From an uncultured Pseudomonadota bacterium (lineage in GTDB: Bacteria > Pseudomonadota > Gammaproteobacteria > Burkholderiales > SG8-39), in contig CAWFPL010000008.1 in the NCBI GenBank assembly GCA_963817785.1, forward strand, positions 912,463-976,462: 64,000 bases of DNA, read 5' to 3'. The first letter of the stretch is position 1; every line of letters starts with the position of its first letter. This document shows positions 16,968 to 46,596 of this stretch, piece by piece. The notes beneath the pieces were generated by a model. It saw only the letters and a program-made list of their open reading frames with translations. It did not search any database and was not told where the DNA came from. A program made the translations under genes and the position numbers.

Positions 16968-16975
16968 GGAAGAGC

Positions 16976-23657: not shown

Positions 23658-23658
23658 G

Positions 23659-24519: not shown

Positions 24520-24624
24520 GTCCGCCCAGTCACTTCCGCAAGCCCGTCGACGCTCGACGCGGCGGCGGGAACCCCGCCCGCCGCGCGAACGCGCCGAACA
24601 CCCGTACCCGCTATGCGCGCCTGA

Positions 24625-25776: not shown

Positions 25777-25984
25777 GCGCGCTCCTTCCCCTATCCGAAG
25801 TCTTGCTGAACCTGGGACCATAAATGCCTCCTTGGGTTAACCACCGAAAGTCACTTCGCACTTGTTGTTTAACGCCCCATTCGAACGTTCGCGTCCCGAT
25901 CGTGCGCGGCGCCGTGGCGCGACGGTACGGACGCCCCGAGGTGGCGCCCTCGTCTTGACAGGCCCCGCCCCCGCGAGCACTATG

Positions 25985-26310: not shown

Positions 26311-26829
26311 ATGCCCACGAGATCCAAGCAGATTGCCAATGCACGCTACCGTGCCGACATTGGGCGGTACCTGGAGGACTTTAAGGTCGGCGACGTGTAT
26401 GAGCATCGGCCCGGCAGGACGCTCACGGACGCGGACAACATCCAGTTCTCGCTCCTAACGATGAATAACCACCCACTCCATTGCGACGCGGTCTACGCCC
26501 GAAACAGCGAGTTCGGGCGCCCACTGGTGAACAGCGCCCTTACGCTGGCCGTGGTGCTGGGCATGTCGGTAGCGGACGTCAGTGCCAAGGCGATCGCCAA
26601 CCTCGGCTGGAGCGACATCAAGCTTTTAGCGCCGGTTTTCCCCGGCGACACCATTTACGCCGAGTCCGAGGTACTAGAGCTGCGAGAATCCAAGTCCCGT
26701 CCGACCCAAGGTGTAGTCACCGTGCGTACCACAGGCAAGAAAGCAGACGGCACGGTATTCATGACCTTCGTGCGCTCGGTATTGGTACCCAAGCGCGGCC
26801 ATGGCGTCGGAGACGTCGCTAGCTATTGA
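26311..26829 (+). CDS. MaoC-like (R)-specific enoyl-CoA hydratase/dehydratase
   Basis: 172 aa with FKVGDVYEHRPGRTLTDADNIQFSLLTMNNHPLHCD, the MaoC hotdog hydratase motif (as in itaconyl/mesaconyl-CoA hydratase-type proteins). Confidence 0.8.
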   Translation: MPTRSKQIANARYRADIGRYLEDFKVGDVYEHRPGRTLTDADNIQFSLLTMNNHPLHCDAVYARNSEFGRPLVNSALTLAVVLGMSVADVSAKAIANLGWSDIKLLAPVFPGDTIYAESEVLELRESKSRPTQGVVTVRTTGKKADGTVFMTFVRSVLVPKRGHGVGDVASY

Positions 26830-27027: not shown

Positions 27028-28179
27028 ATGAGCAATGATAACGAGCAGGAACGTCTGATCCTCGACGCAGTTGACCGTTTTTTGGAGACGGAGGTTAGAC
27101 CCCACGTGCAAGAACTCGAGCACGAGGACATCTATCCCACCGAAATCGTGGAAAAGATGAAAGAGCTCGGACTATTCGGCTGCACGATCTCCCAGGGCTA
27201 CGGCGGCCTTGGGCTTTCCACGTCGACCTACGCAAAGCTCGTCGAGCGCATTTCCGCCGTGTGGATGTCACTTTCTGGAGTCATCAACTCCCATCTGATG
27301 ATGGCCTTTGCGGTCGAGCGCCATGGAACCGAGGCGCAGAAACGCCATTTCCTGCCGCAATTCGCCACTGGGGAATTGCGTGGTGGCGTCGGTCTCACGG
27401 AGCCAAACGCTGGCACCGACCTGCAGGCAATTCGAACAGTCGGAGTGCGCGAAGGCGACCAGTACGTGATCAATGGAACCAAGATGTGGATTACAAACGG
27501 GCTTCATGGCAACTGCTTCTCTCTACTCGTTAAGACCGACCCCCAGGCCGAACCGCGTCACATGGGCATGAGCCTCTTCATTGCCGAGAAGGCTCAAGGC
27601 TTCACCGTCAGCCGAAAGCTGAAAAAGCTGGGTTACAAGGGCATCGACACCTGCGAATTGGTATTTAACGATTACCGCGTCGCCAGCGACCGGCTGATCG
27701 GTGGCAAGGAAGGGCGCGGCCTACAGCAAGTCCTTTCAGGGCTAGAGCTCGGACGCATTAACGTTGCTGCACGCGGCGTGGGCGTGGCACGCGCCGCACT
27801 GCAGGACGCGGTGGTCTACTCGCAGCAGCGACGAACGTTCGGCAAGCCAATTTGCGAGCATCAAGCCATCCAGCTCAAGCTTGGAGATATGGCAACCCGC
27901 GTCGAGGCGGCCCGCCTGCTCGTGGAAGCCGCGGCACGCGCGTTCGATCGCGGAGAACGCTGCGACATGGAATCCGGTATGGCCAAGCTCTACGCGACGG
28001 AAGCCGCAATGGACAATTCGCTCGATTCCATGCGCATCCACGGCGGCTACGGGTACTCGACGGAATTCAACGTTGAGCGTTACTTTCGCGACAGTCCCTT
28101 GCTATTGATCGGCGAGGGCACCAACGAGATGCAGCGCATCATCATCGCCAAGCAGCTAATCAAGCGGAATCCGGCATGA
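27028..28179 (+). CDS. acyl-CoA dehydrogenase
   Basis: 383 aa with GLTEPNAGTDL, KMWITNG, the C-terminal YEGTNEMQ-like GEGTNEMQRIIIAKQL, and catalytic-Glu context. Confidence 0.9.
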   Translation: MSNDNEQERLILDAVDRFLETEVRPHVQELEHEDIYPTEIVEKMKELGLFGCTISQGYGGLGLSTSTYAKLVERISAVWMSLSGVINSHLMMAFAVERHGTEAQKRHFLPQFATGELRGGVGLTEPNAGTDLQAIRTVGVREGDQYVINGTKMWITNGLHGNCFSLLVKTDPQAEPRHMGMSLFIAEKAQGFTVSRKLKKLGYKGIDTCELVFNDYRVASDRLIGGKEGRGLQQVLSGLELGRINVAARGVGVARAALQDAVVYSQQRRTFGKPICEHQAIQLKLGDMATRVEAARLLVEAAARAFDRGERCDMESGMAKLYATEAAMDNSLDSMRIHGGYGYSTEFNVERYFRDSPLLLIGEGTNEMQRIIIAKQLIKRNPA

Positions 28180-29366
28180 GCCTGCCCCTTCACGGCTTGC
28201 GTATCATCGCCGTGGAGCAATACGGCGCCGGGCCATTCGGCACACAGCACATGGCCGATCTCGGTGCCGAAGTCATCAAGGTTGAGAATCCCGAAGAGGG
28301 CGGCGACGTTGGACGCGCGGTGGGACCTTACTTTTTCGCTCCCGGCGACAGCCATTTTCACGAATCCTTCAATCGAAACAAGAAGAGCATCACGATTAAC
28401 CTCAAGAAACCCGAAGGGCAAGCGGTGCTTCACGATCTGGTCCGGACCGCTGACGGTGTTTTCGACAACCTGCGCGGAGATCTACCGGCCAAATTGGGTC
28501 TGACCTACGCAGACCTCAAGGCCCACAATCCAGCAATTGTCTGTGCACATCTTTCCGCCTACGGTCGAAGTGGATCCCGCGCTTCTTGGCCGGGATACGA
28601 CTACCTGATGCAGGCTGAGGCAGGATACCTTTCTCTGACAGGCGAGCCTGGAGGGCCGCCCGCCCGTTGCGGAATTTCGATCATCGACATGATGACCGGC
28701 GTTACTGCCGCGTTTGCGTTGTTGGCCGGAATCGTGAGCGCACGCAGTACGGGCATCGGCCGTGACGTTGACGTAAGCCTGTTCGACGTCGCTCTGCACA
28801 ACCTCACCTATCTTGGTACGTGGTACCTGAATGAGGGGGTAGCGGCGCAACGCGAGCCTCGATCGAGTCACCCTTCCCTCACGCCGAGTCAACTCTACCG
28901 TACCCGAGATGGCTGGCTTTTCATCATGTGCAACAAGGAGAAATTCTGGCCCCTGCTGGCGCAGGCCTTAGGGAAACCAGAGTGGGCCGAGCATCCGGAC
29001 TTCTGCAACTTCAAAGCGCGTCTTGCCAATCGCGCCCGATTAACCGAACTCCTGGACGAAGTGCTGAGCACTGCCACCACCGCGGAATGGCTCGAGCGCC
29101 TCAGTGGTAAGGTTCCGGTAGCTCCCGCTTACGGAGTGGCTGAAGCCTTGGACAATCCGTTTGTCAAAGAGCAAGAACGCGTCATCGAGGCTGAGCATCC
29201 GGTCCGCGGCAAGATTCGGACTCTTGCCTGCCCGGTGCGCTGTTCCGGCGAACCCGATCGGATCGGGATCGCCCCGGCGCTGGGCGAGGACACCGAGGCC
29301 GTTCTGCAGGCCATCGGCTATGACTGCGAGCAAATCGCTCAACTTCGCGAGAAAAGGGTGGTATGA
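28176..29366 (+). CDS. family III CoA-transferase
   Basis: 396 aa with GLRIIAVEQYGAGPFGTQHMADLGAEVIKVENP...NRNKKSITINL. ATGA overlap with the ACAD gene. Confidence 0.85.
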   Translation: MSLPLHGLRIIAVEQYGAGPFGTQHMADLGAEVIKVENPEEGGDVGRAVGPYFFAPGDSHFHESFNRNKKSITINLKKPEGQAVLHDLVRTADGVFDNLRGDLPAKLGLTYADLKAHNPAIVCAHLSAYGRSGSRASWPGYDYLMQAEAGYLSLTGEPGGPPARCGISIIDMMTGVTAAFALLAGIVSARSTGIGRDVDVSLFDVALHNLTYLGTWYLNEGVAAQREPRSSHPSLTPSQLYRTRDGWLFIMCNKEKFWPLLAQALGKPEWAEHPDFCNFKARLANRARLTELLDEVLSTATTAEWLERLSGKVPVAPAYGVAEALDNPFVKEQERVIEAEHPVRGKIRTLACPVRCSGEPDRIGIAPALGEDTEAVLQAIGYDCEQIAQLREKRVV

Positions 29367-30115
29367 GCAAGGAATCACCCTCGCCGCTGGTCGCCAGCCA
29401 GCCGCAGTATGTGCTCGTGGCGCAGGCGCTAATGCGCGACATCGCGCGAGGGCACTATCCCGTGGGGAAGTTATTGCCGACCGAACTGGAGCTCTGCACC
29501 CAGTTCCAGGTCAGCCGCCACACGATACGGGAAGCCATACGCAAGCTACTTGAGAGAGGGATGATCGTTCGCCAGCGCGGGGTCGGCACCCGAGTCAAGG
29601 CGAGCCAAACGCACTCCAGCTACGTCCAATCGACAACCTCGATCTCCGACCTGACGCAGTACGTGAAGGATACGCGTCTCGTGACGACCAAAGGTCAGGA
29701 GGTCATTGCCGATGAGGCGCTGAGCGCAAAGCTCAAGTGCGCCGTGGGTCAGCGCTGGATCTGCGTAAATGGCTTCCGATACGTAGGCAGGGAGAAGTTG
29801 CCGATAGCGCTCACCGAGATTTACATCAATCCAATATACGGTGAGATTCAGAGGTTCATCGGCGTCACGAAGGTGCCGGTGTACACACTGATCGAAGAGC
29901 AATTCGGTGAGCGTGTTGTCGAAGTGAAGCAGGAGCTTCGCGCAGTCACGCTCTCCGCAGGAGACGCCAAACGTCTTAAGGCCAAAGTCGGCTCCGCTGG
30001 CCTGCTCATCGTACGACACTATATGGGAGCCAAGGACCAAGTGCTGGAGGTTGCGGTAAACCTCCATCCCGCCGACCGCTTTTCGTACCTTATGTCATTG
30101 CGTCTGCAGCTATAG
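29363..30115 (+). CDS. GntR-family regulator with UTRA effector domain (HutC subfamily)
   Basis: 250 aa with the wHTH LPTELELCTQFQVSRHTIREAIRKLLERGMIVRQRGVGTRV and a UTRA-sized C-terminus. ATGA overlap with the CoA-transferase. Confidence 0.85.
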   Translation: MSKESPSPLVASQPQYVLVAQALMRDIARGHYPVGKLLPTELELCTQFQVSRHTIREAIRKLLERGMIVRQRGVGTRVKASQTHSSYVQSTTSISDLTQYVKDTRLVTTKGQEVIADEALSAKLKCAVGQRWICVNGFRYVGREKLPIALTEIYINPIYGEIQRFIGVTKVPVYTLIEEQFGERVVEVKQELRAVTLSAGDAKRLKAKVGSAGLLIVRHYMGAKDQVLEVAVNLHPADRFSYLMSLRLQL

Positions 30116-30314: not shown

Positions 30315-31088
30315 ATGGGCTCTAGCTCCGCGTCCCCAGGCATCCTTGGGCAATCGCGTTACGCGCTCGTCGCACGCTCCCTTTGCGACCACATCAACGC
30401 GGACCGCTATCCGATCGGCACGCTGCTGCCGACGGAAGTGGCTCTGTGCCAGCAATTCGGCGTATCGCGCACCACCCTGCGTGAGGCGATCCGGTGGTTG
30501 AGCGATCGCGGCATGGTCTCGGCGCGCCGCGGGATTGGCACGATGGTTCTCGCAAAGCAGCCCGCGACGCGATACGTCCACGCCGTCGATTCGATTGCCG
30601 ACGTCTTTCAGTACGCGAAGAACTTGCGCAACCCAATTGTCTTGAGCACGCACGAGTTCGACGTCGCCGTAGCCGATGAAGAGCTGCTGCGCGGCGCGGC
30701 TGGACAGCGCTGGATTCGTATGGAGCTGACCCGGACCTTCCTCGGGGACACAACGCCGCTGCTTTACGCACAGGTTTATGTACCGCACATGTTCGGGACC
30801 ATTGCACAACTGGCCCCGACCTGCAGTAACCCGATCTACACACTGCTCGAAAGCGAATACGGCGAGCAAATCCTTGCTGTGGAACTGGAGTTCGGAGCGG
30901 CCCCCATTGATACCAGACCGGCACAAATGCTTCACGTCGCACCCGGCTCACCAAGCCTTTGCGTCATCAGGCATTACTTTGGTTCCAGCAAACGCCTCTT
31001 GCTAGTAACGGTGAGCCATTATCACCCCGACCGCTACAGTTATCGGATGCGGTTGGATTTCAATCCGCAGCTTTCAAAAAGGCCGTGA
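30315..31088 (+). CDS. GntR-family regulator with UTRA domain (paralog of the preceding gene)
   Basis: 257 aa with LPTEVALCQQFGVSRTTLREAIRWLSDRGMVSARRGIGTMV. It is collinear with the 29363 protein. Confidence 0.8.
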   Translation: MGSSSASPGILGQSRYALVARSLCDHINADRYPIGTLLPTEVALCQQFGVSRTTLREAIRWLSDRGMVSARRGIGTMVLAKQPATRYVHAVDSIADVFQYAKNLRNPIVLSTHEFDVAVADEELLRGAAGQRWIRMELTRTFLGDTTPLLYAQVYVPHMFGTIAQLAPTCSNPIYTLLESEYGEQILAVELEFGAAPIDTRPAQMLHVAPGSPSLCVIRHYFGSSKRLLLVTVSHYHPDRYSYRMRLDFNPQLSKRP

Positions 31089-31172: not shown

Positions 31173-32618
31173 ATGGACAACGCAGCCATCGCCCACAACG
31201 CAACGCCTGACCCATTAATCTCTGCATCGTTGTCTTCTTTTGCTTCCGAATTGCGCCTGGATGACGTGCCTGACCCAGTCTGTCAATGCGCCAAGCTTCA
31301 CATGCTCGACGCCATTGGCATTGCCCTCGCTTCGAGCACGGAGAAGTTCGCGCTGCAGATCGTTGGCGCTCTCAGCGGTTTGGCCGGACGTGGGGACTAC
31401 CCCGTGATCGGCTTTCCGCACAAGCTTCCGATTCGAGACGCAGTGCTCGCCAACGGAGCCTTGATACACGGCATCGATTTCGACGACACGCACTCGGCTG
31501 GTGTAATCCACGTTTCGGCTAGTGCATTGCCGATGGCGCTTGCCGCGGCCCAAAGTATCGCCGGCACCGGAAAGGATGTCCTCCTCGCCTACCTCATTTG
31601 CGTGGAAACGGCCAGCCGAATTGCTATCGCAGCCAAAGGCGGATTCCACGTGAAGGGATTTCATCCGACCGGCATGGTTGCAGCCTTTGGCGCCGTGCTT
31701 GGCGTTGGCAGACTGTGGGGATTGACCGAGCCAGAACTCGCCCATGCGCAGGGCCTAGTTCTCAGCAAGGCAAGTGGCTCGTTCGAATTTATCGAAGACG
31801 GTGCGTGGAACAAGCGGTTCCATCCTGGATGGGCTGTTGCAGCCGCGATCACAGCGTGCGCCTTGGCCAAAGCTGGCGTCATCGGTGCCCGCAAAACCTA
31901 CGAAGGGCGCTACGGGCTTTTCAAATCATATCTCGGCGACGCATGGCAAGCCGATCTCTCCGCCTGCACGGCAGGCTTGGGCTCAAAGTGGGAGATGCTC
32001 GCGGTAGCGCTCAAGCCGTACCCCGTCTGCCACTTCAACCATGCCTTCATTGACGCGGCGCTTGCGTTGCGCAAGGATTATTCGATCGCGCCTGACCAGA
32101 TCGAATCGATCCAAGCGCTTATCGGCAAAGACCAGATCGGCATTGTCTGCGAACCCGAGGCAAACAAGCGCCGCCCACAGAACGCCTACGATGCCCGATT
32201 CTCCTTGCCTTTCGCCATCGCCACGGCGCTCATACACGGTCGTCTTACGATGAACGAGATCGCGGATTCCGCCATCCATGATCATCGCGTGCTCGGGCTA
32301 TGCGACCACACCACGTATGCGATCGACGATACAAGCGCTTACCCTCGCCACTACTCGGGAACTCTAGTGATTCGCCTACGCGACGGCCGCACGTTCAGCC
32401 ACCGGGAAGAGATTAACCGCGGTTCGACGGAAAAACCGCTTAGCAAGGACGATGTACTGGATAAGTTCCGGCAAACCGCCTGCAAAGCGCTGCCAGCTGC
32501 CAAAGTGGAGAAGACGATTCGCGATGTGCTCGATCTGGAGTCACTCACCGGCGTAGATGCCTTCGTATCGGCGCTTGCCCCCGCAGTATCGTCTACCGCC
32601 CTGCGGGAGATGGCGTAA
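31173..32618 (+). CDS. MmgE/PrpD-family protein (2-methylcitrate dehydratase superfamily)
   Basis: 481 aa. The size and the patterns HMLDAIGIALASS, NGALIHGIDFDDTH and KPYPVCHFNHAFIDAAL fit MmgE/PrpD. A GAGGAG RBS precedes the start. Confidence 0.8.
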   Translation: MDNAAIAHNATPDPLISASLSSFASELRLDDVPDPVCQCAKLHMLDAIGIALASSTEKFALQIVGALSGLAGRGDYPVIGFPHKLPIRDAVLANGALIHGIDFDDTHSAGVIHVSASALPMALAAAQSIAGTGKDVLLAYLICVETASRIAIAAKGGFHVKGFHPTGMVAAFGAVLGVGRLWGLTEPELAHAQGLVLSKASGSFEFIEDGAWNKRFHPGWAVAAAITACALAKAGVIGARKTYEGRYGLFKSYLGDAWQADLSACTAGLGSKWEMLAVALKPYPVCHFNHAFIDAALALRKDYSIAPDQIESIQALIGKDQIGIVCEPEANKRRPQNAYDARFSLPFAIATALIHGRLTMNEIADSAIHDHRVLGLCDHTTYAIDDTSAYPRHYSGTLVIRLRDGRTFSHREEINRGSTEKPLSKDDVLDKFRQTACKALPAAKVEKTIRDVLDLESLTGVDAFVSALAPAVSSTALREMA

Positions 32619-32776: not shown

Positions 32777-33208
32777 ATGGCGCCAAGAGCCACTCTAGTA
32801 CTCGGCGTGATCGGCGCCGATATCCATAATATCGGAATCACCATCTTGGCCTCGGCATTGAGCTCCGCCGGGTTCAAAGTAGTAAATCTGGGAATCTTGG
32901 TGTCGCAGACAGAATTCGTGAAGGCGGCCGTGGAGACGGCAGCCGACGCAATTCTTGTCTCATCGCTGTGTGGCCACGGCGAGCTCGACTGCAAAGGCCT
33001 GCGCGCCCAATGCACCGAGGCCGGGCTCGAGAACATCGTTCTCTACGTGGGCGGCAATTTGGTCGTCGGCAAGCAGGACTGGGAGCCGATCGCGCACAAG
33101 TTCGTGGCGATGGGTTACGACCGTGCCTATCCACCTGCCACGACCCCGCATCGCGTGGTCGAGGACCTGACGGCCGATCTCGTAGACAAAGGGAGGGCAA
33201 GAACATGA
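32777..33208 (+). CDS. glutamate-mutase-like B12-binding small subunit (GlmS/MutS type)
   Basis: [32 protein letters not shown] (the DxHxxG motif) and [11 protein letters not shown] match methylaspartate mutase sigma. The start could be ATG 32777 or 32768. Confidence 0.8.
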
Positions 33209-34665
33209 CCCGCGTGCAAAGTAACACCCTCCCGAGCATGACGCGGTGGGACGAGGATCGCTTCCAGGAAGTGCGGCGGAGCGTGCTGGCAGCATGGCCC
33301 ACCGGTAGTGAAGTCGATCTTGACGAAGCTGCCGCCTACCACCGCGAGATGGCGCCAGCTAAGAACACCGCTTGGAGACTTCGACAGGCGCGCGCCCAAG
33401 GCACGACGCTGGTGCAACCGCGCGCCGGCGTCGCCGACGTCGAGCAGCAAATTGCGCTTCTCCAACGGCTACGAGTCGCAGGCGCAGATCTCCTCCCTAC
33501 GACTGTGGACTCGTACACTCGAGAATGCCGCTACGAGGATGCCGCGCGCGGCCTCGCGCAAAGCCGGGAAGCGGGCCGCTCACTGCTCAACGGCTTTCCC
33601 GCCGTCAACTATGGTGTACGAACTTGCCGTCGCCTCGTCGAGGCGGTGGATGCACCCCTGTTCGCTCGCACCGCGGCGCCCGACTGCCGCCTTACTCACG
33701 AAATCATGTACGCGGGCGGCTATAGCTCGTGCACGGCAGGCCCGATTGTCTTCTCGTTGGGGTATGCCAAGGATTATCCTCTGGCGAATGCGATCGAAGC
33801 CTGGCAATACTCGTATCGCATGATGGGCGCCTACCATGAGCGGGGCGTCACCTTGAGCGTCGAGCACTACTTGCCGATCTCGACCTTGGTCCCGCATGCG
33901 ACGTCGATGGCCTGCGCGCTCCTGGATTCCCTGATCGCCGCCGCGCAAGGTGTGCGCGACATCTCCCTCGGATTCGGCCAGCAATGCCATCTTGTCCAGG
34001 ATGCCGCCGCGCTGCGCGCCTATCCGGCCCTCGGCCGTCATTATCTCCACACCTTCGGCTTCACTGACGTAGAACTGAGCACGGTGATGTCGCAGTGGAT
34101 GGGTGGGTTTCCCAGCGACGAAGGACAGGCGTTCGGTGTCATCTGCATGGCCGCGCTCGCCGGTTACCTGGGCGGCGTTACTTACATGATCTCGAAGTCG
34201 CCCCACGAAGCGGCAGGCATCCCAACACCAGAGGCGAACATGCACGGCGTGAGTGCCTCGAAGATGGTGCTCAGAATGCTCGCTGACCAAAAGCTCGCCC
34301 CCATCCCAGAGATTGCCGCCGAGCAAGCGATCCTGGAAGCCGAGACGCGAGCCATCGTAGACCGCGCGCTCGAGCTCGGCGAGGGAGACGCCGCTCTGGC
34401 GGCAATTCGGGCGATCGAAGCCGGCGTCATTGACGTGCCCTTCTCGCCGCATCGTTCGAACGCCAACCAAGCGCTGCCGGCGCGAGATTGGCGCGGCGCT
34501 GTTCGGCTCGCGCAAGTCGGGGGCGTGCCGATTCCGAAGGAAATCCGCGAGCATCACCAGGCCGAACTCGCACGCCGCACGGCAGGGCGGGCAGAACGGC
34601 AACCCTGGGAACTGTTACTAGCCGATGTGAACGCGATCAGCGAAGGCATGCTGCTCCCCGACTGA
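33205..34665 (+). CDS. glutamate-mutase-like large subunit (GlmE/MutE type), atypical active site
   Basis: ATG 33205 forms an ATGA overlap and gives 486 aa. The protein is collinear with clostridial GlmE as I recall it: [42 protein letters not shown]-like [11 protein letters not shown], and [11 protein letters not shown]. Confidence 0.8.
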
Positions 34666-34690: not shown

Positions 34691-35137
34691 GTGAGCCAAC
34701 AACCTTTACGCGGTGTGCGGTTCGTAGATCTCACGACGGTCCTGATGGGCCCTTTCGCGACGCAGATTCTTGGCGATTACGGCGCTGACGTCATCAAAGT
34801 TGAATCGCCCGCGGGAGATCCCGTACGCGGAATCGGTCCGGCCCGCCAACCGGTATGGGTTCGATCTTCCTGCAGGCCAACCGCAACAAGCGCAGCCTGG
34901 TGCTTGACCTGCGCACTTCCGAAGGCCTGGCGTTATTGCGGGAGCTCATCGCCACTGCAGACATCTTCGCCTACAACTTGCGACCGCAGGCGATGGAAAA
35001 GCTCGCTCTTACGTATAGCGGTCCATGTAAGCGCCGAGATCCTCGCCTCGCTCGGTCGCGCACCGCAGGACATCGCGGCGCTGGCCGAACGCGCCATCAC
35101 CCGGATCGACCCCGAAAGCGCTGCGCTGCCGACCTAG
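34691..35137 (+). pseudogene. family III CoA-transferase remnant (frameshift plus large internal deletion)
   Basis: Frame 2 reads [44 protein letters not shown]. Frame 1 (ORF 34855..) continues with [25 protein letters not shown]...[13 protein letters not shown]. Frame 2 then gives only the extreme C-terminus ([20 protein letters not shown]). About 250 central residues are missing. Confidence 0.8.
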
Positions 35138-36012
35138 GCTCGCCTACGTCCCTCGACGGGCTTGGTTGGCAGCTTGTCCGGCTTGCTCGGACCCCACACG
35201 CGGCTATAGTAGGTGTCGGCGAGCTGCAGCGCACCGACCGGGTTGTGCGCAAGCACACGGTCCTTCGTGACCAGCGTGGTAACCAGTCCCCGCGAGTAGC
35301 GGATGAACAGACTGTCGTGCCCCACGCACAGGCCGACGATTACGTTCAGCTCACAACCGGCACGGTTAAGTAGTTCGGCCTGCGATATGGGATTGCAGAT
35401 TGCCTCGAACGTTCCTGGACGGATCTTATCTTCGTCCTTGAGCCCGATTTCCTCCTTCGGCACACCGCCGTTCTTGCAGGCGACCGAGGCGACTTCCAGC
35501 CCGTGGCTCTCGAGAATGGCGCTAAACACGCGCGACAGATCGACGAAGCTAATGCAGGTGGCGATGCCGACGTGGCGAAACCCCATGCGCTTGGCAAAGT
35601 GACAGATCTCCTCGACCCGCGTCCACTTGCAATAACCTTCGCTTTCCACAGCCGCCGAAACTCGCGCGATGCGCTCGATGAAGGGATTGCGTCGATAATC
35701 CTGCGCATCAGCGATACCCTCGGGGTCGACCTTGGATGGGCAAAATCCGGGGCCTCGCTCATCGCTCTCCCCTTGGCGACATGCGCGAACCGTGTTCGGG
35801 CAATACGCGCAGGCCGGCGTTTCGTATGCAGCCACTACCGCATTCTTAATCCAGGGGTCATACAAAACGAGCCTACGCTCAGCCTCAAGCCGCTTCAACC
35901 GTTTTGAGCTGAGCGATTCAAGATTCTCCCTTGAAGGGGAAACGATGGATTCCAGGCGCAAATGCGACTCGTTCCGGCGACTCACGGGAACCGTGACGGC
36001 AGCACACGTCAA
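35134..36012 (-). CDS. Cys-rich metal-binding protein (DUF1847-like by recollection)
   Basis: Track ORF of 292 aa with [20 protein letters not shown] and [14 protein letters not shown]. The true start is uncertain, since several internal TTG/GTG codons are available. Confidence 0.5.
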
Positions 36013-36336
36013 AAGGGAGTAGCTGACCGGACCCGATTACTTGTCAGGCCGACGGCTTCATCGGACACCGCGTAGCCTTAAAGTGCGAACGCACGTGCGT
36101 TTGATTGGCGGATTAAAGTGCTGTCAAAGTCGGTCGAGCGCTCCACCAGCAGTAGTGAGCGACAGTAGCCCGGCGCCCTTGAAAATCACCAAATAGTGAT
36201 CGCTGCGCAAGACATCCACGTCGTATCGCCGAATTCCGCACCGCGTACTGATTCTGTATGCGGGCACATTCCAAATTCTCCGTATGTCTTATCCATCGCT
36301 GCTGGAGAGGCGGAGACGATGGCGGAGCTCTGCAAA

Positions 36337-36430
36337 TGGCGGAAGAGGTAGGAGTCGAACCTACCAGAGACGTCAGACGCCTCTCCCCGGATTTGAAGTC
36401 CGTGCGTCCCACCGGGGACGTTGCTCTTCC
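36337..36430 (-). tRNA. selC: tRNA-Sec (anticodon UCA)
   Basis: The reverse complement reads GGAAGAGCAACGTCCCCGGTGGGACGCACGGACTTCAAATCCGGGGAGAGGCGTCTGACGTCTCTGGTAGGTTCGACTCCTACCTCTTCCGCCA. It has the anticodon loop CUUCAAAUC, a long variable arm, the T-loop GGTTCGACTCC and a 3' GCCA. It is closely collinear with E. coli selC as I remember it. Confidence 0.9.
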
Positions 36431-38241
36431 TCGGAAAGCTTGCGTGCGAAGCGCAGGTCGCCCGCTCGCCGCGTGTAGCCGGCCTCGTCGAGGTACTCGA
36501 GCATCGCAATCGTCAGATTGCGGCCGAGGCCGCTGCGGTCGCGAAACTGCGCCGCCGTGAATCCGCGTTTTTTCGACTCGCGGTCCAGCGTCACCGCCAG
36601 ATCCACTAATCGGTCGACCATCTCCGGCAAGAAGAAGCGGTTCGGGGCCACGCGATGCACACGCCCCGCGCGCGCCACCCGATGCAGGAATTCGGCCACC
36701 ATCTTGGGCTCCATCGCGACACGCTCCGCCAACTCGTGTACTCGAGGGGGCCTGCCGCCCTCGCCCCCGAGGAGCAGCGCGCACCTTTGCCAAAGGACCT
36801 CATCCTGCGCCGAGAGTGCCGGGACGTGACTGGGCAGGCGCAGGCTCGGGCCTTCGCGCGCGAGTTGTCCGGCGCCGACCAGGGACTCGATTACCGCCGC
36901 GAGCGGAGCACCGACGTCTGCTGGCCGCGGGCCGATCGCATCAGGATACGCCGCGTGCCAGGCAGCGACGGAACTCACAAGCGCCTCGCAATGCGCCTCC
37001 CACCGTTCTCGCCGCATCATGTGGCGCACCCCGCGCACGGCGAAGGCGACGAGTCCCTCCGCACGAAGGGGAGGAACGTGGAACGTCCTTTCAAACCACT
37101 CAACGTTCACTATTCCCTTGGTCAACAGAGCGTCGAGGGCCTGTTCGGCGGATCGGCCCACGAACAGCCCAAGCGTGGCGACGCGCTCGGGCCGCGAAGC
37201 GCCTCGTTCGGGTGGCAGCGGATCGACCACCACACCCGCGCCGACGAGTCGCCAGGAGCCCGGATCGCGCAGCAGCAGACGGTCGCCGTGCCACGCCGAA
37301 ACCGCGCGCGGAAAAGCAAGCCGCGCAAAGCGCCCGAATGGCGAGAGCCTCGCCTGCAGCATCGCGGTACCCAAGTGCACGCCGAGCGTGACGGCCCGGA
37401 CGAGTGGCGCCTGGAGCCACGCCACCTCGATGTCGACGTGCCGCGACACGGGCGCAGGTGCCGAATCCGCAAGCACATCACCGCGCTGCAGCTGGCCGCG
37501 CGCGACGCCGTGCAGGGCTAGCGCGCAGCGCTGTCCAGCGGTTGTGCGAGCCGCTTCGCAACCGTTCGCGCGCAAACTGCGCACGCGCGCGCGGCGTGCC
37601 GCGGGCAGCACCTGCACCTCGTCCCCCAGCGTGACTGCGCCCGACAGGACGGTGCCCGTGGCGACGAGACCAATGCCGTCGATCACGAAGGCGCGATCCA
37701 CGTTCATCCGGAAACGTGGCGCCGTGGCGTGCGGCGGCACGCTGCCGGCGATGGCGGTGAGCCTATTACGCAGCCCATCGAGCCCGTGGCCGGTGACCGC
37801 GGACACCTGCAGAACCTCGGATCCCTCGAATCGGCCCCGGGCGAGTAGAGCACGCAATTCGACCTCTGCCTGCGCCGCGCGCTCGGGCGCCGTGCGGTCG
37901 ACCTTGCTTAGCACGGCGAGCAGCCGCGGCGCACCGAGATGCTCGAGGATGGCCACGTGCTCGCGCGTCTGCGGCATGGGTCCGTCGTCGGCAGCAACCA
38001 CCAGCAGCGCGAGGTCAATACCCTGCACGCCTGCAGTCATGTTGCGCACGAAGCGCTCGTGCCCCGGTACGTCGATGAACGCAATTGGCGCGCCGCCGGC
38101 GAGGGGCAGATAGGCGAAGCCGAGGTCGATGGACATGCCGCGGCGCTTTTCCTCCGGCAGCCGATCAGTGTCGACGCCGGTGAGCGCGCGCACGAGGGCG
38201 GTCTTGCCGTGGTCCACGTGGCCGGCCGTGGCGACGATCAC
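36373..38241 (-). CDS. selB: selenocysteine-specific translation elongation factor SelB
   Basis: 622 aa with [30 protein letters not shown] and the C-terminal winged-helix region. GTGA overlap with selA. The ORF 3' end runs 58 nt into selC. Confidence 0.9.
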
Positions 38242-39629
38242 AGCGTGCGGCCTTCGAGCTGATTAAGAAAGGCCGCCTCCTCCTCCAGGCAGCGCAGGTC
38301 GAGCCACAGCGCGTCGTTGTGAATGCGCCCGATCACAGGAATCGGCAGGGAGCGGAGCGATTGTGCAATGCGCGCGGGCTTCACCGTCGCGGAGGCAATG
38401 CGCAGCGCTGCGCTCGGCAGGCGGTCTACCGGCAACGACCCGCTGCCGACCTGGCTCGCGCAGCCCTCGACCGTCACTTCGGCCTGCGCACCGCAGAAGC
38501 GCTGCACCCGCGGCAGGACACGCTCGGCAAGGGCCGCGATGTCTGCGGCGGGCCGCGTCAGGACCCGAAGCGTGGGCAGTCGCTCGCGTAAGCGCTCCGG
38601 ATCCAGGTACAAGCGCAGTACTGCCTGCAATGAGGCGATGCGGCCCTTGTCCAGTCGCAATGCGCGCTTCATCGGGTTGTTGCGTAGCCTTTCCACGAGC
38701 TCGCGCCGGCCGACGACCAGCCCTGCCTGCGGACCGCCGAGCAGCTTGTCACCGCTGAACGTGACGAGGTCGGCCCCCGCCGCAAGCGCGCGCATGGGCG
38801 TCGGCTCGGCGGGCAGACCCCAGCGCTCGAGCTGTGCGAGGGCGCCGCTGCCCAGGTCGACGATGAACGGTAAACCGTGGGCGTGCGCAAGGCGCGCCAG
38901 CTCGGCTTGCGGCGGGGCGGCGGTGAAGCCCACCAGCGCATAGTTGCTCGGGTGAACCTTCAATATGGCCGCCGTATCAGGGCCGATTACCCTCTGGTAG
39001 TCGACGAGGTGCGTGCGGTTCGTGGTCCCCACCTCGCGCAGGCGGCAGCCCGCCGCCTCGATGATTTCCGGGAGGCGGAACGAGCCACCGATCTCCACGA
39101 GCTCGCCGCGCGACACCGGCACTTCGCGCCCTGCGGCGAGCGCATTGAGCGCGAGCAGCACAGCGGCCGCATTGTTGTTTACGGCGGTGGCCGCCTCTGC
39201 GCCCGTAATGCGGCAAACGAGCATCTCGAGGTGTGAGTCGCGCTCCCCACGTTCGCCCGCCTCGAGGTCGTATTCGAGGTTCAAGGGCTCGGCGAGAGCC
39301 GCGCCACAGGCCTCGATCGCCTCGCGCGGCAGGAGCGCGCGCCCGAGGTTGGTGTGCAGCACTGTGCCGGTGAGGTTGAACACGCGGCGTAGCGTAGGCC
39401 GCGCAGCCGCCTCGAGCCGGCATAGCAGCGCATGCACGACGCCGTCATAGGACAACGCGCCCGCGGCGCCCGCCTTCAGCGCCGCCCGGTGCTCCGCAAG
39501 CAGCGCGCGCAGTTCGGCCACAACCACTTCGCGCGCACAGGTGGCGATGGGCACAGCGAGGCGTGGGTCCCGTAGGATCCGGTCGACCGAGGGGATAGTG
39601 GCGAGCGGCATGGCAATCATCGTACCCAC
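38238..39629 (-). CDS. selA: L-seryl-tRNA(Sec) selenium transferase SelA
   Basis: About 460 aa with [27 protein letters not shown], and [13 protein letters not shown] (PLP-Lys region). The start is ambiguous: GTG 39629, ATG 39620 or ATG 39611. Confidence 0.9.
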
Positions 39630-39686: not shown

Positions 39687-40610
39687 ATGGAACTGCGCCA
39701 GCTGCGCTACTTTGTGCGTATCGTCGACTTGGGAAGCCTCTCCAAGGCGGCAGCCGACCTCTATGTCGCTCAGCCCGCGCTCTCCAAGCAGATGGCGGCG
39801 TTGGAGGGTGAGCTGAGGACCGCGCTGCTCGTCCGCAGCCCGCGCGGCGTTACCGCGACCGAGGCCGGGCACACCTTCTACCGGCAGGCGCAGTCGGTGC
39901 TGCGGCAGATGGCGCGCATCCCGGACGAGGTCCGCTCAGCCGAGGCCAGCCCCACTGGCGTGGTCGCGATTGGCATGCCGTTTAGCGCCTCCAATATCTT
40001 AGCGCCCGCCCTAGTCAAGGCGGTGGGCGAGCGTCTACCTGGCATTCGGCTGGCCATCACGCAGCAAGGTAGTGGTCAGCTCGAAGGTCTGCTCGCCGGA
40101 GGCCGGCTCGACCTGGGCCTGCTCTACGAACGCGCGCGACCCTCGCCGCAAATCGAGGAGCAGCGACTCCTGACGGAGGAGCTGTACCTTGTCACGCGCG
40201 CGCCTGGCAGTAAGGCAAGCGCTACGCTCGCGGAAGCGGCCCGCCAGCGCCTCATTCTGCCAGGGCCCTTCAATTCGACCCGCCAAGTCGTCGAAAGGGC
40301 CTTTATCAAGGCGGGCCTCGAACTGGGGCTCGCGGCCGAGGTGGATGTGCCCTGGTCGAGCGCCGCGATGGTCGCGGCTGGGCTGGGCGCCACGATCGTG
40401 TCGCGTTCAGCGCTGTACCCGGAGAGGCCCGGAAGTGGCCTCAGCGTCAGGCGGATCGTACGCCCGGCGCTCACCCGCGCGCTGAATCTATGCAACGTCC
40501 GCGGCGAAACACCGGCGCACACGGTGGCGCTGGTGTCGCACACCGTGCGGCAGGTCGCACACGACCTCATCGAGCGCGGCGCCTGGCGCGGGGCGGCCAG
40601 CCATACCTAG
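39687..40610 (+). CDS. LysR-family transcriptional regulator
   Basis: 307 aa with MELRQLRYFVRIVDLGSLSKAAADLYVAQPALSKQMAALE, the LysR HTH. Confidence 0.9.
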   Translation: MELRQLRYFVRIVDLGSLSKAAADLYVAQPALSKQMAALEGELRTALLVRSPRGVTATEAGHTFYRQAQSVLRQMARIPDEVRSAEASPTGVVAIGMPFSASNILAPALVKAVGERLPGIRLAITQQGSGQLEGLLAGGRLDLGLLYERARPSPQIEEQRLLTEELYLVTRAPGSKASATLAEAARQRLILPGPFNSTRQVVERAFIKAGLELGLAAEVDVPWSSAAMVAAGLGATIVSRSALYPERPGSGLSVRRIVRPALTRALNLCNVRGETPAHTVALVSHTVRQVAHDLIERGAWRGAASHT

Positions 40611-40688
40611 TGGTTATACCGGTAGCGCCAACTCGTATTTCCCAGGAATGGCCAGCCCGCCTACCATCGAACCGAACGAGGATTCGTC

Positions 40689-41810: not shown

Positions 41811-41826
41811 CAAAGGAGGCGTCCTA

Positions 41827-46575: not shown

Positions 46576-46596
46576 GTAGTCAGCGTCACTCACAGG

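Follow-up and report, generated by a model that had tools for sequence, protein, structure and literature searches.

To our knowledge, only about a dozen AdoCbl-dependent isomerases have been described, and the GlmE fold has kept a single known substrate since the enzyme was discovered around 1960. We know of only one enzyme that carries out an AdoCbl-dependent 1,2-shift on a free, non-amino C5 dicarboxylate, 2-methyleneglutarate mutase, and this enzyme belongs to the methylmalonyl-CoA mutase family, not to PF06368. Contact roles in the glutamate mutase active site are assigned in PMC10947579: the Glu171 carboxylate hydrogen-bonds the migrating glycyl amine, Tyr177 hydrogen-bonds the acrylate carboxylate, and a claw of Arg66, Arg100 and Arg149 grips the two carboxylates. 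Substrates of the PrpD family have a common succinate backbone and are processed by a shared enolate mechanism (PMC12290011). As hallmarks of the (S)-(R)-methylsuccinate isomerase Msi we take a gene always next to that of the methylsuccinyl-CoA dehydrogenase and close similarity in sequence to the C. necator and P. aeruginosa enzymes.

The window, meaning the whole 64-kb stretch of DNA that was analysed, encodes a GlmS-like, B12-binding small subunit (32777–33208, plus strand; 143 aa) and a GlmE-like catalytic subunit of what we call the T171 clade (33205–34665, plus strand; 486 aa). Both open reading frames are intact and overlap in an ATGA; the first starts at an ATG 9 nt 3' of a GGAGG, an alternative ATG at 32768 being too near that site. 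The small subunit matches PF02310, NCBIfam PRK02261 (198 bits, cut-off 110) and 1I9C chain A (167 bits), with the base-off/His-on DxHxxG motif GADIHNIG aligned with GSDCHAVG. The sole Pfam match of the catalytic subunit is Met_asp_mut_E (PF06368; 514.5 bits, gathering score 26.6), and it scores 514 bits against the ‘methylaspartate mutase’ equivalog TIGR01503 (cut-off 390). It is 43–50% identical to authentic glutamate mutases and aligns to chain B of 1CB7, 1CCW and 1I9C at 444 bits (phmmer), gap-free over residues 111–214; the numbering of the PDB GlmE chains equals that of the literature. Its AF2 model (pLDDT 93.3) superposes on 1CB7_B and 6H9E_B with TM scores of 0.95/0.96 and an rmsd of 1.4–1.5 Å (Foldseek). 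MCM structures are related only as a distant fold (TM about 0.5, 14–16% identity), and the Pfam search returned no match to the acyl-CoA mutase family PF01642. The earlier note had read the two ORFs as a GlmS/GlmE-type pair, and both the family scores and the superposition on Clostridium cochlearium GlmE agree.

Alignment to solved GlmE places the claw arginines in QPRAGV (Arg66), SYTRECRY (Arg100) and FARTAA (Arg149), all three invariant in the clade, as the earlier note had proposed for this protein. Tyr181, Lys326 and Glu330 are also kept; Lys326 and Glu330, which we take to be adenosine-ribose contacts, are invariant in the T171 clade and in canonical GlmE alike. The window segment aligned to the GlmE segment containing Glu171 is GGWTSNEGGGISYNVPYAK, with Thr at the Glu171 equivalent (residue 177; codon ACG, 33733–33735, plus strand). 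A further Thr occupies the His150 equivalent (residue 156; codon ACC, 33670–33672, plus strand), right after the kept Arg149. Both replacements had been noticed from the sequence and stand in the proper alignment. The Tyr177 equivalent is Phe (residue 183), and further swaps relative to GlmE are Gln147 to Phe, Gly172 to Ala, Ser176 to Val, Pro180 to Gly, Gly217 to Leu, loss of Gly221 and His291 to Ser; these changes, Tyr177 to Phe included, were not in the earlier note. Counting beyond Glu171 and Tyr177, about ten positions where barrel strands 3, 4, 5 and 7 end C-terminally, as placed by the secondary structure of the AF2 model, carry other fixed residues, most of them smaller or more hydrophobic. 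The loss of Glu171 removes one negative charge from the pocket and would thus fit a substrate without an NH3+ group. Our main reading, to which we give a probability of roughly 0.7, is that the pair forms a working AdoCbl carbon-skeleton mutase with a pocket re-specified to take a dicarboxylate lacking the 2-ammonium group.

These changes extend across a clade of uncultured Burkholderiales. The signature F147/T150/A151/T171/A172/V176/F177/G180/L217/delta-G221 is common to 42/42 relatives (70–88% identity) and is also found in 16 sequenced loci. Position 171 is Thr in 42/42 clade members versus Glu in 79/79 canonical GlmE; canonical sequences also have Tyr177 (78/79) and His150 (78/79), and the clade-type substitutions occur in none of the 79. 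Residue 291 is Ser, Thr or Ala within the clade (Ser in the window), the other swaps being nearly all fixed. Clade and canonical enzymes are fixed differently at 26 sites, 15 of them within residues 147–221, and the same comparison reveals no new acidic residue in the barrel. The dN/dS of the clade is 0.07–0.16. In the phylogeny, P0042 joins the T171 clade in a single monophyletic lineage, with the canonical enzymes as its sister group; P0042 is an orphan, a search for its cultured or closer relatives having found none. The earlier note had asked whether the clade has a conserved Thr: Thr171 is invariant through both the clade and P0042, and Glu is invariant in the canonical set. At the level of sequence, the loss of Glu171 is a clade signature, more than chance and not a one-off. 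Of 159 PF06368 sequences, made up of cluster representatives and references, only 57 keep Glu171; other GlmE-like lineages have Leu, Val or Ile there, and the family includes many lineages with very different pockets. T171-clade mutases carry the name ‘methylaspartate mutase’ in public records, and profile scores show that the curated TIGR01503 threshold does not separate them from true glutamate mutases.

Methylaspartase, the partner of canonical glutamate mutase, is missing from the neighbourhood. A tblastn search of the 64 kb with two methylaspartate ammonia-lyase queries (E ≤ 1e-3) was empty, in line with what the earlier note had reported for the surrounding genes, and at the same threshold none was found in about 20 clade loci (about 10 kb read on each side). 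In both canonical controls (L019 and L020), methylaspartate ammonia-lyase directly follows GlmE in the order S-L-E-MAL. The canonical order is S-L-E and that of the clade is L-S-E or lacks L; MutL/GlmL accompanies the clade mutase in most loci and is missing in the window. The passed equivalog threshold for methylaspartate mutase counts against a non-glutamate reading, and the pair could still be a glutamate mutase in which another residue or water does the work of Glu171, the methylaspartase gene lying in some other part of the genome. Such an enzyme would account for the passed TIGR01503 and PRK02261 cut-offs, the identity to authentic enzymes within the same fold and the usual MutL/GlmL companion, and the methylaspartase search covered the window and the roughly 10-kb flanks of the clade loci. 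We nevertheless find it hardly credible. Glu171 is replaced together with His150 and Tyr177 throughout the clade and retained throughout the canonical set, no acidic residue compensates, and methylaspartase is found in 0 of about 20 loci, adjacent as it is in both controls; the gene order differs and a dedicated PrpD partner is present. Even the Glu171Gln exchange reportedly cost Madhavapeddi and Marsh, in 2001, about 50-fold in kcat.

Upstream of the pair lies PrpD1, an MmgE/PrpD-family paralogue (31173–32618, plus strand; PF03972, PF19305) which among solved structures is nearest to B. subtilis ‘IRG1’, cis-aconitate decarboxylase and IDS epimerase. All PrpDs that reach 67% identity to PrpD1 adjoin mutase genes: those of 5/5 metagenome loci from a reciprocal search, in which the PrpD is at least 68% identical and MutL-GlmS(-GlmE) lies directly downstream, and those of four loci from other searches. 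Conversely, a PrpD1 orthologue adjoins the mutase in five loci found through GlmE (the window, L006, L009, L016 and L025). A locus of the sister lineage (L017) has a PrpD in the same place that is only 42% identical to PrpD1, and PrpDs at most 56% identical sit in mutase-free MaoC-PrpD-ACAD-CoAT clusters. By this genomic coupling, PrpD1 is dedicated to the mutase genes. A conserved PrpD neighbour, raised in the earlier note, is thus borne out by the reciprocal search and falls short in the other direction, since about half of the clade loci have no PrpD1 within 10 kb and PrpD is not a universal neighbour. In L016, PrpD1 occurs together with PrpD2, the latter beside the dehydrogenase, and this co-occurrence speaks for separate roles.

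PrpD1 keeps the family set, with Asp as its second residue: His88, Glu/Asp91, His102, His152, Lys202 and Lys266 (motifs HGIDFDDTHSAGVIH, GFHPTG, AWNKR and LKPYP), by the list of carboxylate-binding and catalytic residues in PMC12290011. The second catalytic base of the isomerase, Tyr148, precedes His152 by four residues; PrpD1 has Val at this site and PrpD2 has Gln, an assignment that is moderately certain given OCR damage in the reference DNA, the isomerase genes having been recovered in that form from the supplement of PMC12290011. PrpD1 is ~25–35% identical to the characterised isomerases and family members over partial, OCR-degraded alignments. Given that low partial identity and the non-conserved catalytic Tyr, we reject orthology between PrpD1 and the characterised methylsuccinate isomerase; PrpD1 also adjoins mutase genes rather than a dehydrogenase, unlike the Msi gene. 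Also rejected was a match on a C. necator plasmid (L021), which has no dehydrogenase neighbour and differs from the characterised isomerase. With its low identity to characterised family members, PrpD1 may be a dehydratase, an epimerase or an isomerase.

The remaining neighbours, which the earlier note had listed as a PrpD-family protein, two GntR regulators and CoA-transferases, were all identified in place. GntR2 (30315–31088, plus strand), a GntR/UTRA regulator, is the conserved first gene of the mutase operon, with relatives (50–69% identity) upstream of PrpD1 or MutL in 12 loci (L001, L006, L009, L010, L011, L012, L016, L025, L026, L027, L028 and L030). A second GntR/UTRA regulator, GntR1 (29363–30115, plus strand), belongs to a hydratase–dehydrogenase–transferase module and co-occurs with ACAD and CoAT in L006, L013, L025 and L027; both regulators were assigned by Pfam and loci comparison. 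The module comprises a MaoC-type, Ich/RipB-like (R)-enoyl-CoA hydratase (26311–26829, plus strand; PF19315 MC_hydratase, PF01575; 215 bits against NCBIfam RipB/Ich, under the 340 cut-off), an acyl-CoA dehydrogenase (27028–28179, plus strand; profile matches) and a family III CoA-transferase (28176–29366, plus strand; PF02515, 380 bits) whose best NCBIfam matches, all below cut-off, are succinate-glutarate and succinyl-CoA:mesaconate CoA-transferases. It is 67–75% identical to an Azospirillum MaoC-PrpD-ACAD-CoAT cluster (Ccl/RipC-like lyase, Ich-like hydratase, PrpD, ACAD, CoAT), the dehydrogenase at 73% and the transferase at 67%; with the methylsuccinyl-CoA dehydrogenase PA0879, the dehydrogenase shares only 108 aa at ~32% identity in an OCR-degraded comparison. 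The Azospirillum lyase scores 227 bits against NCBIfam RipC/Ccl, under the 375 cut-off. No CoA-ester lyase was found in the window; lyase is also absent from L006 and L016 and present in the mutase-free Azospirillum and Pseudosulfitobacter clusters. A rule by which the mutase replaces the lyase was dropped, as L013 has both (the lyase in two frames). From their family matches, the surrounding genes appear to resemble those of branched C5-dicarboxylate (itaconate/methylsuccinate) catabolism.

These itaconate-type neighbours, RipB/Ich-like here and with RipC/Ccl-like lyases in related clusters, would suit a GlmE-type mutase that has arrived by convergence at the reaction of the Eubacterium barkeri enzyme, the interconversion of 2-methyleneglutarate and 3-methylitaconate. 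PrpD1 would then be a methylitaconate isomerase, and the Ich-like hydratase and the CoA-transferase would handle the product as they do itaconate. A C2 exomethylene fits the neutral, more hydrophobic pocket, a pi system in the migrating group eases the shift, and the allylic isomerisation could be within reach of a PrpD-type enolate mechanism (PMC12290011). We rate this version as very unlikely all the same: the only known source of 2-methyleneglutarate is the anaerobic fermentation of nicotinate, nicotinate genes are found in no locus, the acyl-CoA dehydrogenase is left without a role, and the invariant Thr hydroxyl is not accounted for. Huhta and Marsh are also said to have found that 2-methyleneglutarate inhibits wild-type glutamate mutase and traps the adenosyl radical.

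Directly downstream of GlmE is a decayed family III CoA-transferase (34691–35137, plus strand) with a frameshift at 34852 and an internal deletion of ~250 codons. Its profile match is confined to the N-terminal 48 positions; relative to the transferase of L007, where the order GlmS-GlmE-CoAT-ACAD is intact, it is 90% identical over residues 1–50 and 71% over residues 51–115, in different frames, followed by the C-terminal 23 residues. With MutL missing as well, the local pathway may be partly eroded. An ABC uptake system (21136–25821, minus strand; Peripla_BP_6 binding protein, two permeases and ATPases) flanks the cluster and is tied to the pathway only by position. In L025 the same transporter adjoins the module, and in L004 a similar one comes after GlmE. 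Neither a B12 riboswitch nor any other Rfam element was detected in the operon surroundings, and scans for promoters and terminators did not exceed the shuffled expectation. An island integrated at tRNA-Sec was rejected, since no repeat of at least 14 nt from 36291–36400 (the 3' part of the tRNA-Sec gene and about 50 nt beyond) has a second copy in the window.

TRAP, TctC and LIV-type ABC transporters and extra beta-oxidation genes differ among loci, and a TRAP binding protein had no solved structure match at E ≤ 1e-20, giving no ligand clue. Such variable company would be expected if the substrate were an entirely different acid, such as a tricarboxylate or a dicarboxylate that has six carbons or is otherwise substituted, and the C5 analogy misleading. 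The pocket is changed on its ‘glycyl’ as well as its ‘acrylate’ side, one loop residue is deleted, PF06368 holds lineages with very different pockets, and the PrpD-family pocket is said to take larger C3 substituents (PMC12290011). We consider this unlikely: the claw arginines and Tyr181 are in place with no insertions near the pocket, suggesting glutamate-like carboxylate spacing, and the most constant companions are C5-type enzymes.

On the reading of a mutase re-specified for a C5 dicarboxylate, the enzyme would interconvert a 1,5-dicarboxylate with the linear glutarate skeleton and a 1,4-dicarboxylate with a 3-methyl substituent on the succinate skeleton, the adenosyl radical abstracting a hydrogen ahead of the 1,2-shift. 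PrpD1 would act on the branched isomer, since its family always deprotonates the carbon next to a carboxylate in substituted succinates, and the Ich-like hydratase, acyl-CoA dehydrogenase and CoA-transferase would link that isomer to mesaconyl-/citramalyl-CoA-type intermediates. The earlier note had likewise suggested a carbon-skeleton mutase for a dicarboxylate lacking the 2-amino group, a proposal that the Thr171 alignment and, where coupled, the conserved PrpD support. We searched the literature for a non-glutamate GlmE-type enzyme and found no precedent. This would probably be the first GlmE-type AdoCbl mutase with a non-glutamate substrate and, with its PrpD partner, an undescribed route between linear and branched C5 dicarboxylates in Burkholderiales.

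The leading candidate, put forward tentatively, is the interconversion of 2-hydroxyglutarate and 3-methylmalate, with PrpD1 as 3-methylmalate dehydratase or mesaconate hydratase and flux in either direction. It would be a hydroxy analogue of the methylaspartate pathway with PrpD1 in place of methylaspartase. Roymoulik et al. reportedly found in 2000 that L-2-hydroxyglutarate was the only non-amino analogue rearranged by wild-type glutamate mutase. A strict Thr, rather than Val, Leu or Ala, fits a hydrogen-bonding role, and 3-methylmalate, being 2-methylcitrate minus one carboxymethyl arm, would naturally suit a PrpD-type dehydratase. L003 also counts for this candidate, as there an FMN-dependent 2-hydroxyacid dehydrogenase immediately precedes GlmS. 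Tyr177 to Phe and Ser176 to Val alter the acrylate side, which 2-hydroxyglutarate and glutamate have in common, so the real substrate may differ there; moreover, simple oxidation readily turns 2-hydroxyglutarate into 2-oxoglutarate, so that taking a B12 route instead needs a physiological rationale, which the reverse direction would supply.

Our second guess is a mutase for glutarate and (S)-methylsuccinate, which we regard as doubtful though worth keeping in view. PrpD1 would epimerise methylsuccinate to the (R)-form, which the CoA-transferase prefers, and the steps of dehydrogenase, hydratase and lyase would lead on to pyruvate and acetyl-CoA, a B12-dependent glutarate pathway into the methylsuccinate route. 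In Betaproteobacteria, experiments have established both a PrpD-family (S)-(R)-methylsuccinate isomerase and a methylsuccinyl-CoA dehydrogenase, and natural methylsuccinate sources are poorly known according to the same authors (PMC12290011). Methylsuccinate and glutarate are exact de-amino analogues of 3-methylaspartate and glutamate, the pocket is more hydrophobic (F147, V176, F177, L217), every enzyme of the window module gains a role, and by CIP rules (3S)-methylaspartate would map to (S)-methylsuccinate, the isomer needing an epimerase. However, fragmentation–recombination needs a stabilised migrating radical, and a carboxymethyl radical has no captodative stabilisation of the kind found in a glycyl or glycolyl radical, making the reaction far harder. 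A hydrogen substituent does not predict an invariant Thr where other lineages have Leu, Val or Ile; PrpD1 has Val at the isomerase's catalytic Tyr148, besides the low identity in partial, OCR-degraded alignments; and PrpD2 already stands beside the dehydrogenase in L016, making PrpD1 redundant.

If true, a GlmE-type mutase for a non-amino dicarboxylate adds a new reaction to B12 enzymology, provides a natural experiment on protein control of fragmentation–recombination without a glycyl radical, and makes the T171 clade one representative of a much larger unexplored PF06368 set. It could also be a long-sought biocatalyst: routes from 2-hydroxyglutarate or glutarate to mesaconate and methacrylate precursors have been proposed with engineered glutamate mutase. 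It could further fill a gap in branched C5-dicarboxylate metabolism, the environmental sources of these acids being described as unclear in PMC12290011. The annotation of clade proteins above a curated equivalog threshold exposes a systematic misannotation.

Compared with glutamate mutase (EC 5.4.99.1) GlmS/GlmE of C. cochlearium and C. tetanomorphum (1CCW, 1CB7, 1I9C, 6H9E), the window pair has the same two subunits from overlapping genes, a DxHxxG B12 subunit, a TIM-barrel E subunit (43% identity to that of C. cochlearium), the Arg claw, Tyr181 and Lys326/Glu330, and usually a MutL/GlmL protein among its relatives. Unlike the clostridial systems, the clade has no adjacent methylaspartase or mesaconase, occurs in respiratory Burkholderiales rather than fermenting Firmicutes and has a dedicated PrpD-family partner. 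With 2-methyleneglutarate mutase (EC 5.4.99.4) of E. barkeri it would share an AdoCbl 1,2-shift on a free, non-amino C5 dicarboxylate, as proposed here, followed by an isomerase on the branched product; unlike that enzyme, the window protein matches GlmE strongly.

The characterised methylsuccinate clusters, mainly betaproteobacterial, similarly place a family III CoA-transferase, a MaoC-type hydratase, an acyl-CoA dehydrogenase and an MmgE/PrpD protein side by side, the last acting on a free branched C5 acid. They differ in that the window hydratase is Yersinia RipB-like, no lyase is present in the window and a B12 mutase is attached. By analogy, the locus also recalls the methylaspartate pathway or cycle (glutamate mutase, methylaspartase, mesaconase or mesaconate CoA-transferase, and mesaconyl-CoA hydratase), which runs from a mutase that forms a branched C5 acid, through a second enzyme that strips off the C2 substituent and leaves mesaconate, to CoA-transferase and hydratase. 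Here a PrpD-family enzyme would stand in for the ammonia-lyase, the mutase is without its amine contact and, if the analogy holds, water rather than ammonia would be eliminated.

The gene pair opens with a GlmS-like gene (32777-33208, + strand, 143 aa; Pfam B12-binding), which has a GGAGG motif 9 nt upstream of its ATG and is joined by an ATGA overlap to a GlmE-like gene (33205-34665, + strand, 486 aa; Pfam Met_asp_mut_E, 514 bits). Both proteins pass the NCBIfam methylaspartate mutase equivalog models (subunit S, 198 bits against a cut-off of 110; subunit E, 514 against 390), so an annotation pipeline would call the pair glutamate mutase, and public records of relatives carry that name. In a PDB search, the E subunit gave a single long alignment to Clostridium cochlearium GlmE (1CB7/1CCW/1I9C, 6H9E; 444 bits), gap-free across the active-site region, and the S subunit, an intact B12 subunit, scored 167 bits against 1I9C_A in an alignment that includes the DxHxxG cobalt-ligand motif. 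An AlphaFold model of the GlmE-like protein, computed from an alignment of 47 sequences, had a pLDDT of 93.3 and matched 1CB7_B with a TM score of 0.95 and an rmsd of 1.4 Å. The protein belongs to the GlmE structural family.

Within this fold, the adenosine- and carboxylate-binding residues are intact and the substrate pocket is rebuilt. GlmE chain numbering equals literature numbering, and Arg66, Arg100, Arg149, Tyr181, Lys326 and Glu330 are all retained; for the three arginines, alignment to C. cochlearium GlmE confirms what the earlier note had proposed. The same alignment and direct reading of the codons also bear out its two substitutions, Glu171 to Thr (ACG, 33733-33735, + strand) and His150 to Thr (ACC, 33670-33672, + strand). 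Further changes, which that note had not recorded, are Gln147 to Phe, Gly151 to Ala, Asn170 to Cys, Gly172 to Ala, Ser176 to Val, Tyr177 to Phe, Pro180 to Gly, Gly217 to Leu, His291 to Ser and deletion of Gly221. In glutamate mutase, crystallography from 2022 has the migrating glycyl fragment held by Arg66, Arg149 and Glu171, the last bonding its amine, the acrylate fragment held by Arg100 and Tyr177, and Tyr181 touching the product radical (PMC10947579). Read against these roles, the changes remove one contact per substrate half and leave the carboxylate claw intact.

The altered pocket is shared by a whole clade and is no accident. Among 5.8 billion proteins searched, 41 relatives were found at 70-88% identity to the window GlmE, mainly from Betaproteobacteria/Burkholderiales metagenome bins, followed by an identity gap down to an orphan sequence (P0042, 54%) and then canonical, Glu171-bearing GlmE of Firmicutes (~50%). 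The Thr singled out earlier proved invariant: T171, A172, V176, F177, G180, L217 and the one-residue deletion occur in 42/42 clade members in the alignment, F147, T150 and A151 occur in at least 40 of the 41 members covering that region, and direct reading found the twelve-residue signature identical in the DNA of 16 independent loci. Canonical GlmE sequences have E171 in 79/79, H150 in 78/79 and Y177 in 78/79. Clade and canonical enzymes are fixed for different residues at 26 alignment columns, 15 of which fall within residues 147-221, a segment that makes up ~15% of the protein and spans barrel strands 3-5 in the AlphaFold model; the changed pocket residues sit on the C-terminal ends of strands 3-5 and 7. 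Among these 26 differences, two acidic residues are lost and no new acidic residue appears in the barrel. Pairwise dN/dS between the window GlmE gene and ten relatives is 0.07-0.16, indicating purifying selection that maintains the altered protein. In a neighbour-joining tree, the clade and P0042 group together as the sister lineage of the canonical Glu171 enzymes.

The clade has lost the link to methylaspartase. Fourteen clade loci were read, located by protein look-ups and by scanning species-representative genomes; carriers of the clade include the MAGs JAHCKM010000001, JACRPO010000012 and JAZKAV010000011. The fourteen loci come without exception from uncultured Burkholderiales or 'Betaproteobacteria' bins and share the core order GntR/UTRA regulator, PrpD (optional), MutL (GlmL), GlmS and GlmE, often with a TRAP or TctC-type carboxylate transporter beside it. 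Both canonical controls, one a Desulfitobacterium genome and the other a bin labelled Betaproteobacteria, have the classical order GlmS-MutL-GlmE-methylaspartase, and the former also has a class I fumarase/mesaconase a few genes beyond methylaspartase. By tblastn with two methylaspartase queries, no methylaspartase was detected in the 64-kb window, as the earlier note had stated for the neighbourhood, or in any clade locus.

A link to a PrpD-family protein has been gained instead. PrpD1 (31173-32618) retains the family's carboxylate-binding and catalytic His/Asp/His/His/Lys/Lys set, and its orthologues (67-81% identity) immediately adjoin the mutase genes in L006, L009, L016 and L025. PrpD adjacency, which the earlier note had wanted checked as a clade feature, holds for the window and these four loci; in the core of the clade, PrpD is optional. 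In the sister lineage P0042 the order is PrpD-GlmS-GlmE-MutL, and its PrpD shares just 42% identity with PrpD1. In a reciprocal test on 80 metagenome loci encoding PrpD1 relatives, all five with a PrpD at least 68% identical to PrpD1 had MutL-GlmS directly downstream and, on contigs that extended far enough, also a GlmE bearing the T171 signature, and no mutase was found in any locus with a PrpD at most 56% identical. Many of the latter, nearer to the second paralogue PrpD2, are clusters of MaoC hydratase, PrpD, acyl-CoA dehydrogenase and CoA-transferase, in some cases together with a CoA-ester lyase. PrpD1 thus represents a branch, dedicated to the mutase, of a PrpD lineage whose usual role is in a CoA-dependent pathway for a small dicarboxylate. 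Both paralogues occur in L016, one per module, which argues for different jobs. Known PrpD-family substrates all have a succinate (1,4-dicarboxylate) backbone and are deprotonated next to a carboxylate (PMC12290011). A separate 2.3-kb contig (L080, 368-2325) carries a PrpD-family gene distantly related to PrpD1 (40% identity) and, after it, a MutL/GlmL-like gene (36%), a possible sign of a further PrpD-mutase pair beyond the clade.

Upstream of the mutase genes, the window encodes an Ich/RipB-like MaoC hydratase (26311-26829), followed by an acyl-CoA dehydrogenase (27028-28179), a family III CoA-transferase (28176-29366) and another GntR regulator; of the genes around the mutase, the earlier note had listed the PrpD-family gene, the two GntR regulators and the CoA-transferases. 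This module is also found with the mutase in L006, L013, L016 and L025, and in L027 as far as the contig extends. It is 67-75% identical to an annotated Azospirillum brasilense plasmid cluster that comprises a RipC/Ccl-like lyase, MaoC, PrpD, dehydrogenase, transferase and GntR without a mutase, and a Pseudosulfitobacter plasmid has a similar cluster. Its layout mirrors the itaconate/methylsuccinate cluster of Pseudomonas aeruginosa and Cupriavidus necator, in which the PrpD-family protein is the (S)-(R)-methylsuccinate isomerase and the dehydrogenase is methylsuccinyl-C4-CoA dehydrogenase (PMC12290011). Judged by sequence comparison, the resemblance is one of logic, not of orthology: against reference genes from an OCR-damaged supplement (PMC12290011), the window PrpD is ~25-35% identical to the isomerase in partial alignments and only a 108-aa stretch of the dehydrogenase aligns (~32%). 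The second catalytic base of the isomerase, Tyr148, is Val in PrpD1. A cluster of MaoC/Ich-like hydratase, PrpD2-type protein, acyl-CoA dehydrogenase and family III CoA-transferase, often with a Ccl-like lyase and a GntR regulator, is widespread in soil and aquatic metagenomes and on the Azospirillum and Pseudosulfitobacter plasmids (L022, L023, L039-L068 and others). This apparently so far uncharacterised cluster also parallels the methylsuccinate cluster; its PrpD is ~25-31% identical to the characterised isomerase in partial, OCR-degraded alignments, and its dehydrogenase barely aligns with PA0879. In L013, a Ccl-like lyase in two pieces in different frames (2890-3665, - strand), which may reflect a frameshifted pseudogene or a misassembly, lies between GlmE and the GntR1-CoA-transferase-dehydrogenase-PrpD2 module. 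As L013 carries both, we do not retain the idea that the mutase stands in for the lyase.

The window locus has been rearranged recently, as three features show. Directly 3' of GlmE lies a family III CoA-transferase pseudogene (34691-35137, + strand), whose orthologue stands intact behind GlmE in L007 (GlmS-GlmE-CoA-transferase-acyl-CoA dehydrogenase). Residues 1-50 of the pseudogene are 90% identical to that intact copy, followed by a frameshift at 34852, residues 51-115 in another frame, a ~250-codon internal deletion and the last 23 residues; the same wreck occurs in L014 and L015, with fragments in L025. MutL is missing from the window (no homologue in its 64 kb) and from L025 (ena:ERZ27237541 k141_157569), a close relative with the same gene set and a GlmE 85% identical to that of the window. 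An inversion distinguishes the window from L025: the GntR2-PrpD1-GlmS-GlmE segment is turned around with respect to the SelA/SelB side and the hydratase-dehydrogenase-transferase side. The window mutase genes themselves are intact and bear the full signature.

Further upstream, 6 kb from the cluster, the window carries a second B12 system (15451-21046, + strand), encoding an IclR regulator (15451-16194), an enoyl-CoA hydratase (16191-16967), the large subunit of a split acyl-CoA mutase (16964-18601), a small B12-binding subunit (within 18472-19020; DGHDVG), a family III CoA-transferase (19017-20141) and MeaB (20138-21046). The closest solved relative of this mutase is 2-hydroxyisobutyryl-CoA mutase HcmA (511 bits). 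At the specificity positions the window mutase instead has the Tyr (MRQYSGF) and Arg (VARGTW) of the methylmalonyl-CoA-mutase type, so it may act on a carboxylated acyl-CoA. On the Pseudosulfitobacter plasmid (L023), an acyl-CoA mutase and MeaB lie beside the MaoC-PrpD-dehydrogenase cluster. Both B12 clusters of the window fall in a stretch at ~14-36 kb with a GC content of 0.59-0.64, against 0.66-0.71 outside. The left edge of this stretch has genes for a phage-type integrase (12527-13588) and for a HicB antitoxin (13844-14302), and the right edge has tRNA-Sec. These features suggest an acquired island, but the rest of the window showed no repeat of at least 14 nt from 36291-36400, at the 3' end of tRNA-Sec. 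The selenocysteine block (35134-39629, - strand) comprises tRNA-Sec (36341-36430; Rfam, 73.8 bits), SelB (36373-38241) and SelA (38238-39629), adjoined by a DUF1847 protein (35134-36012) whose 90-residue N-terminal extension had no family match. Beyond it, on the + strand, lie a LysR regulator (39687-40610), a protein of 373 aa (40689-41810) that matched no family, two small UGSC-family proteins annotated in L015 (within 39687-43592) and a fourth family III CoA-transferase (42363-43592), for which the best NCBIfam match is succinyl-CoA:mesaconate CoA-transferase (274 bits, below cut-off). Mobile and defence elements occupy 44900-61000: HTH/transposase fragments (44903-45397), a group II intron RNA domain (46934-47005), a maturase remnant (47005-47571), IS21-type IstA/IstB (48453-50754), an IS1595-type transposase (53832-54824), a WYL-domain regulator (56777-57760) and a Cas3 helicase-nuclease (58362-60941).

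Every computational test run supports the reading of the earlier note, a carbon-skeleton mutase for a dicarboxylate without the 2-amino group, with substrate and activity as predictions only. The enzyme would retain the glutamate-mutase-type 1,2-shift, interconverting glutarate and 3-methylsuccinate skeletons, on a substrate without the ammonium group. Charge bookkeeping fits such a substrate: three arginines less Glu171 with glutamate (net -1) equal three arginines with a plain dicarboxylate (-2). PrpD1 would then handle the branched isomer, as its family acts on substituted succinates, and the hydratase, dehydrogenase and transferase would link that isomer to mesaconyl- or citramalyl-CoA-type intermediates. 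From sequence and context, 2-hydroxyglutarate/3-methylmalate is the leading candidate pair, at a probability of roughly 0.3, because the glycolyl radical is stabilised and the invariant Thr could hydrogen-bond the hydroxyl. To our knowledge, 2-hydroxyglutarate is the sole non-amino analogue rearranged by wild-type glutamate mutase. As a truncated 2-methylcitrate, 3-methylmalate would suit a PrpD-type dehydratase, and we also count for this pair an FMN-dependent 2-hydroxyacid dehydrogenase gene that precedes GlmS in L003. Glutarate/methylsuccinate, second in rank and unlikely, is biologically attractive but chemically hard, and would make PrpD1 redundant where PrpD2 occurs. Third in rank, and rather doubtful, is another acid altogether.

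When 1.84 billion cluster representatives were searched exhaustively with HMMER, 241 matched PF06368 at E <= 1e-30. In an alignment of the 150 best of these (P0121-P0270) and nine reference sequences, Glu171 is kept in only 57/159 sequences, and the family therefore holds many uncharacterised specificities. The remaining sequences have Thr, Val, Leu, Ser, Gly, Ile or Ala at position 171, and in many of them the arginine claw is incomplete as well, while Lys326 and Glu330 persist nearly everywhere. One near-canonical variant (Leu171 and Thr150, otherwise canonical) adjoins AtuA/DUF4387 genes in the context LysR / AtuA-DUF4387-GlmS-MutL-GlmE-MFS-metallo-beta-lactamase-CobA, without methylaspartase. 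Of the uncharacterised specificities in the family, the T171 clade lies closest to the known enzyme and has the clearest pathway context.

Full-text literature searches, with much subscription literature outside their coverage, found no description of a GlmE-type enzyme with a non-glutamate substrate, and the finding is of high interest for both B12 enzymology and C5-dicarboxylate metabolism. The only mutase for a non-amino free dicarboxylate that we know of is 2-methyleneglutarate mutase, which is MCM-like and unrelated to the window protein; its pair, 2-methyleneglutarate/3-methylitaconate, ranks fourth and is improbable here. Compared with a bona fide glutamate mutase, the window protein lacks four defining features (Glu171, Tyr177/His150, methylaspartase linkage and operon order), and glutamate as the continuing substrate ranks fifth, the least probable reading. 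The protein nevertheless scores above the curated sequence threshold for that enzyme, a cut-off that thus does not discriminate between the two.
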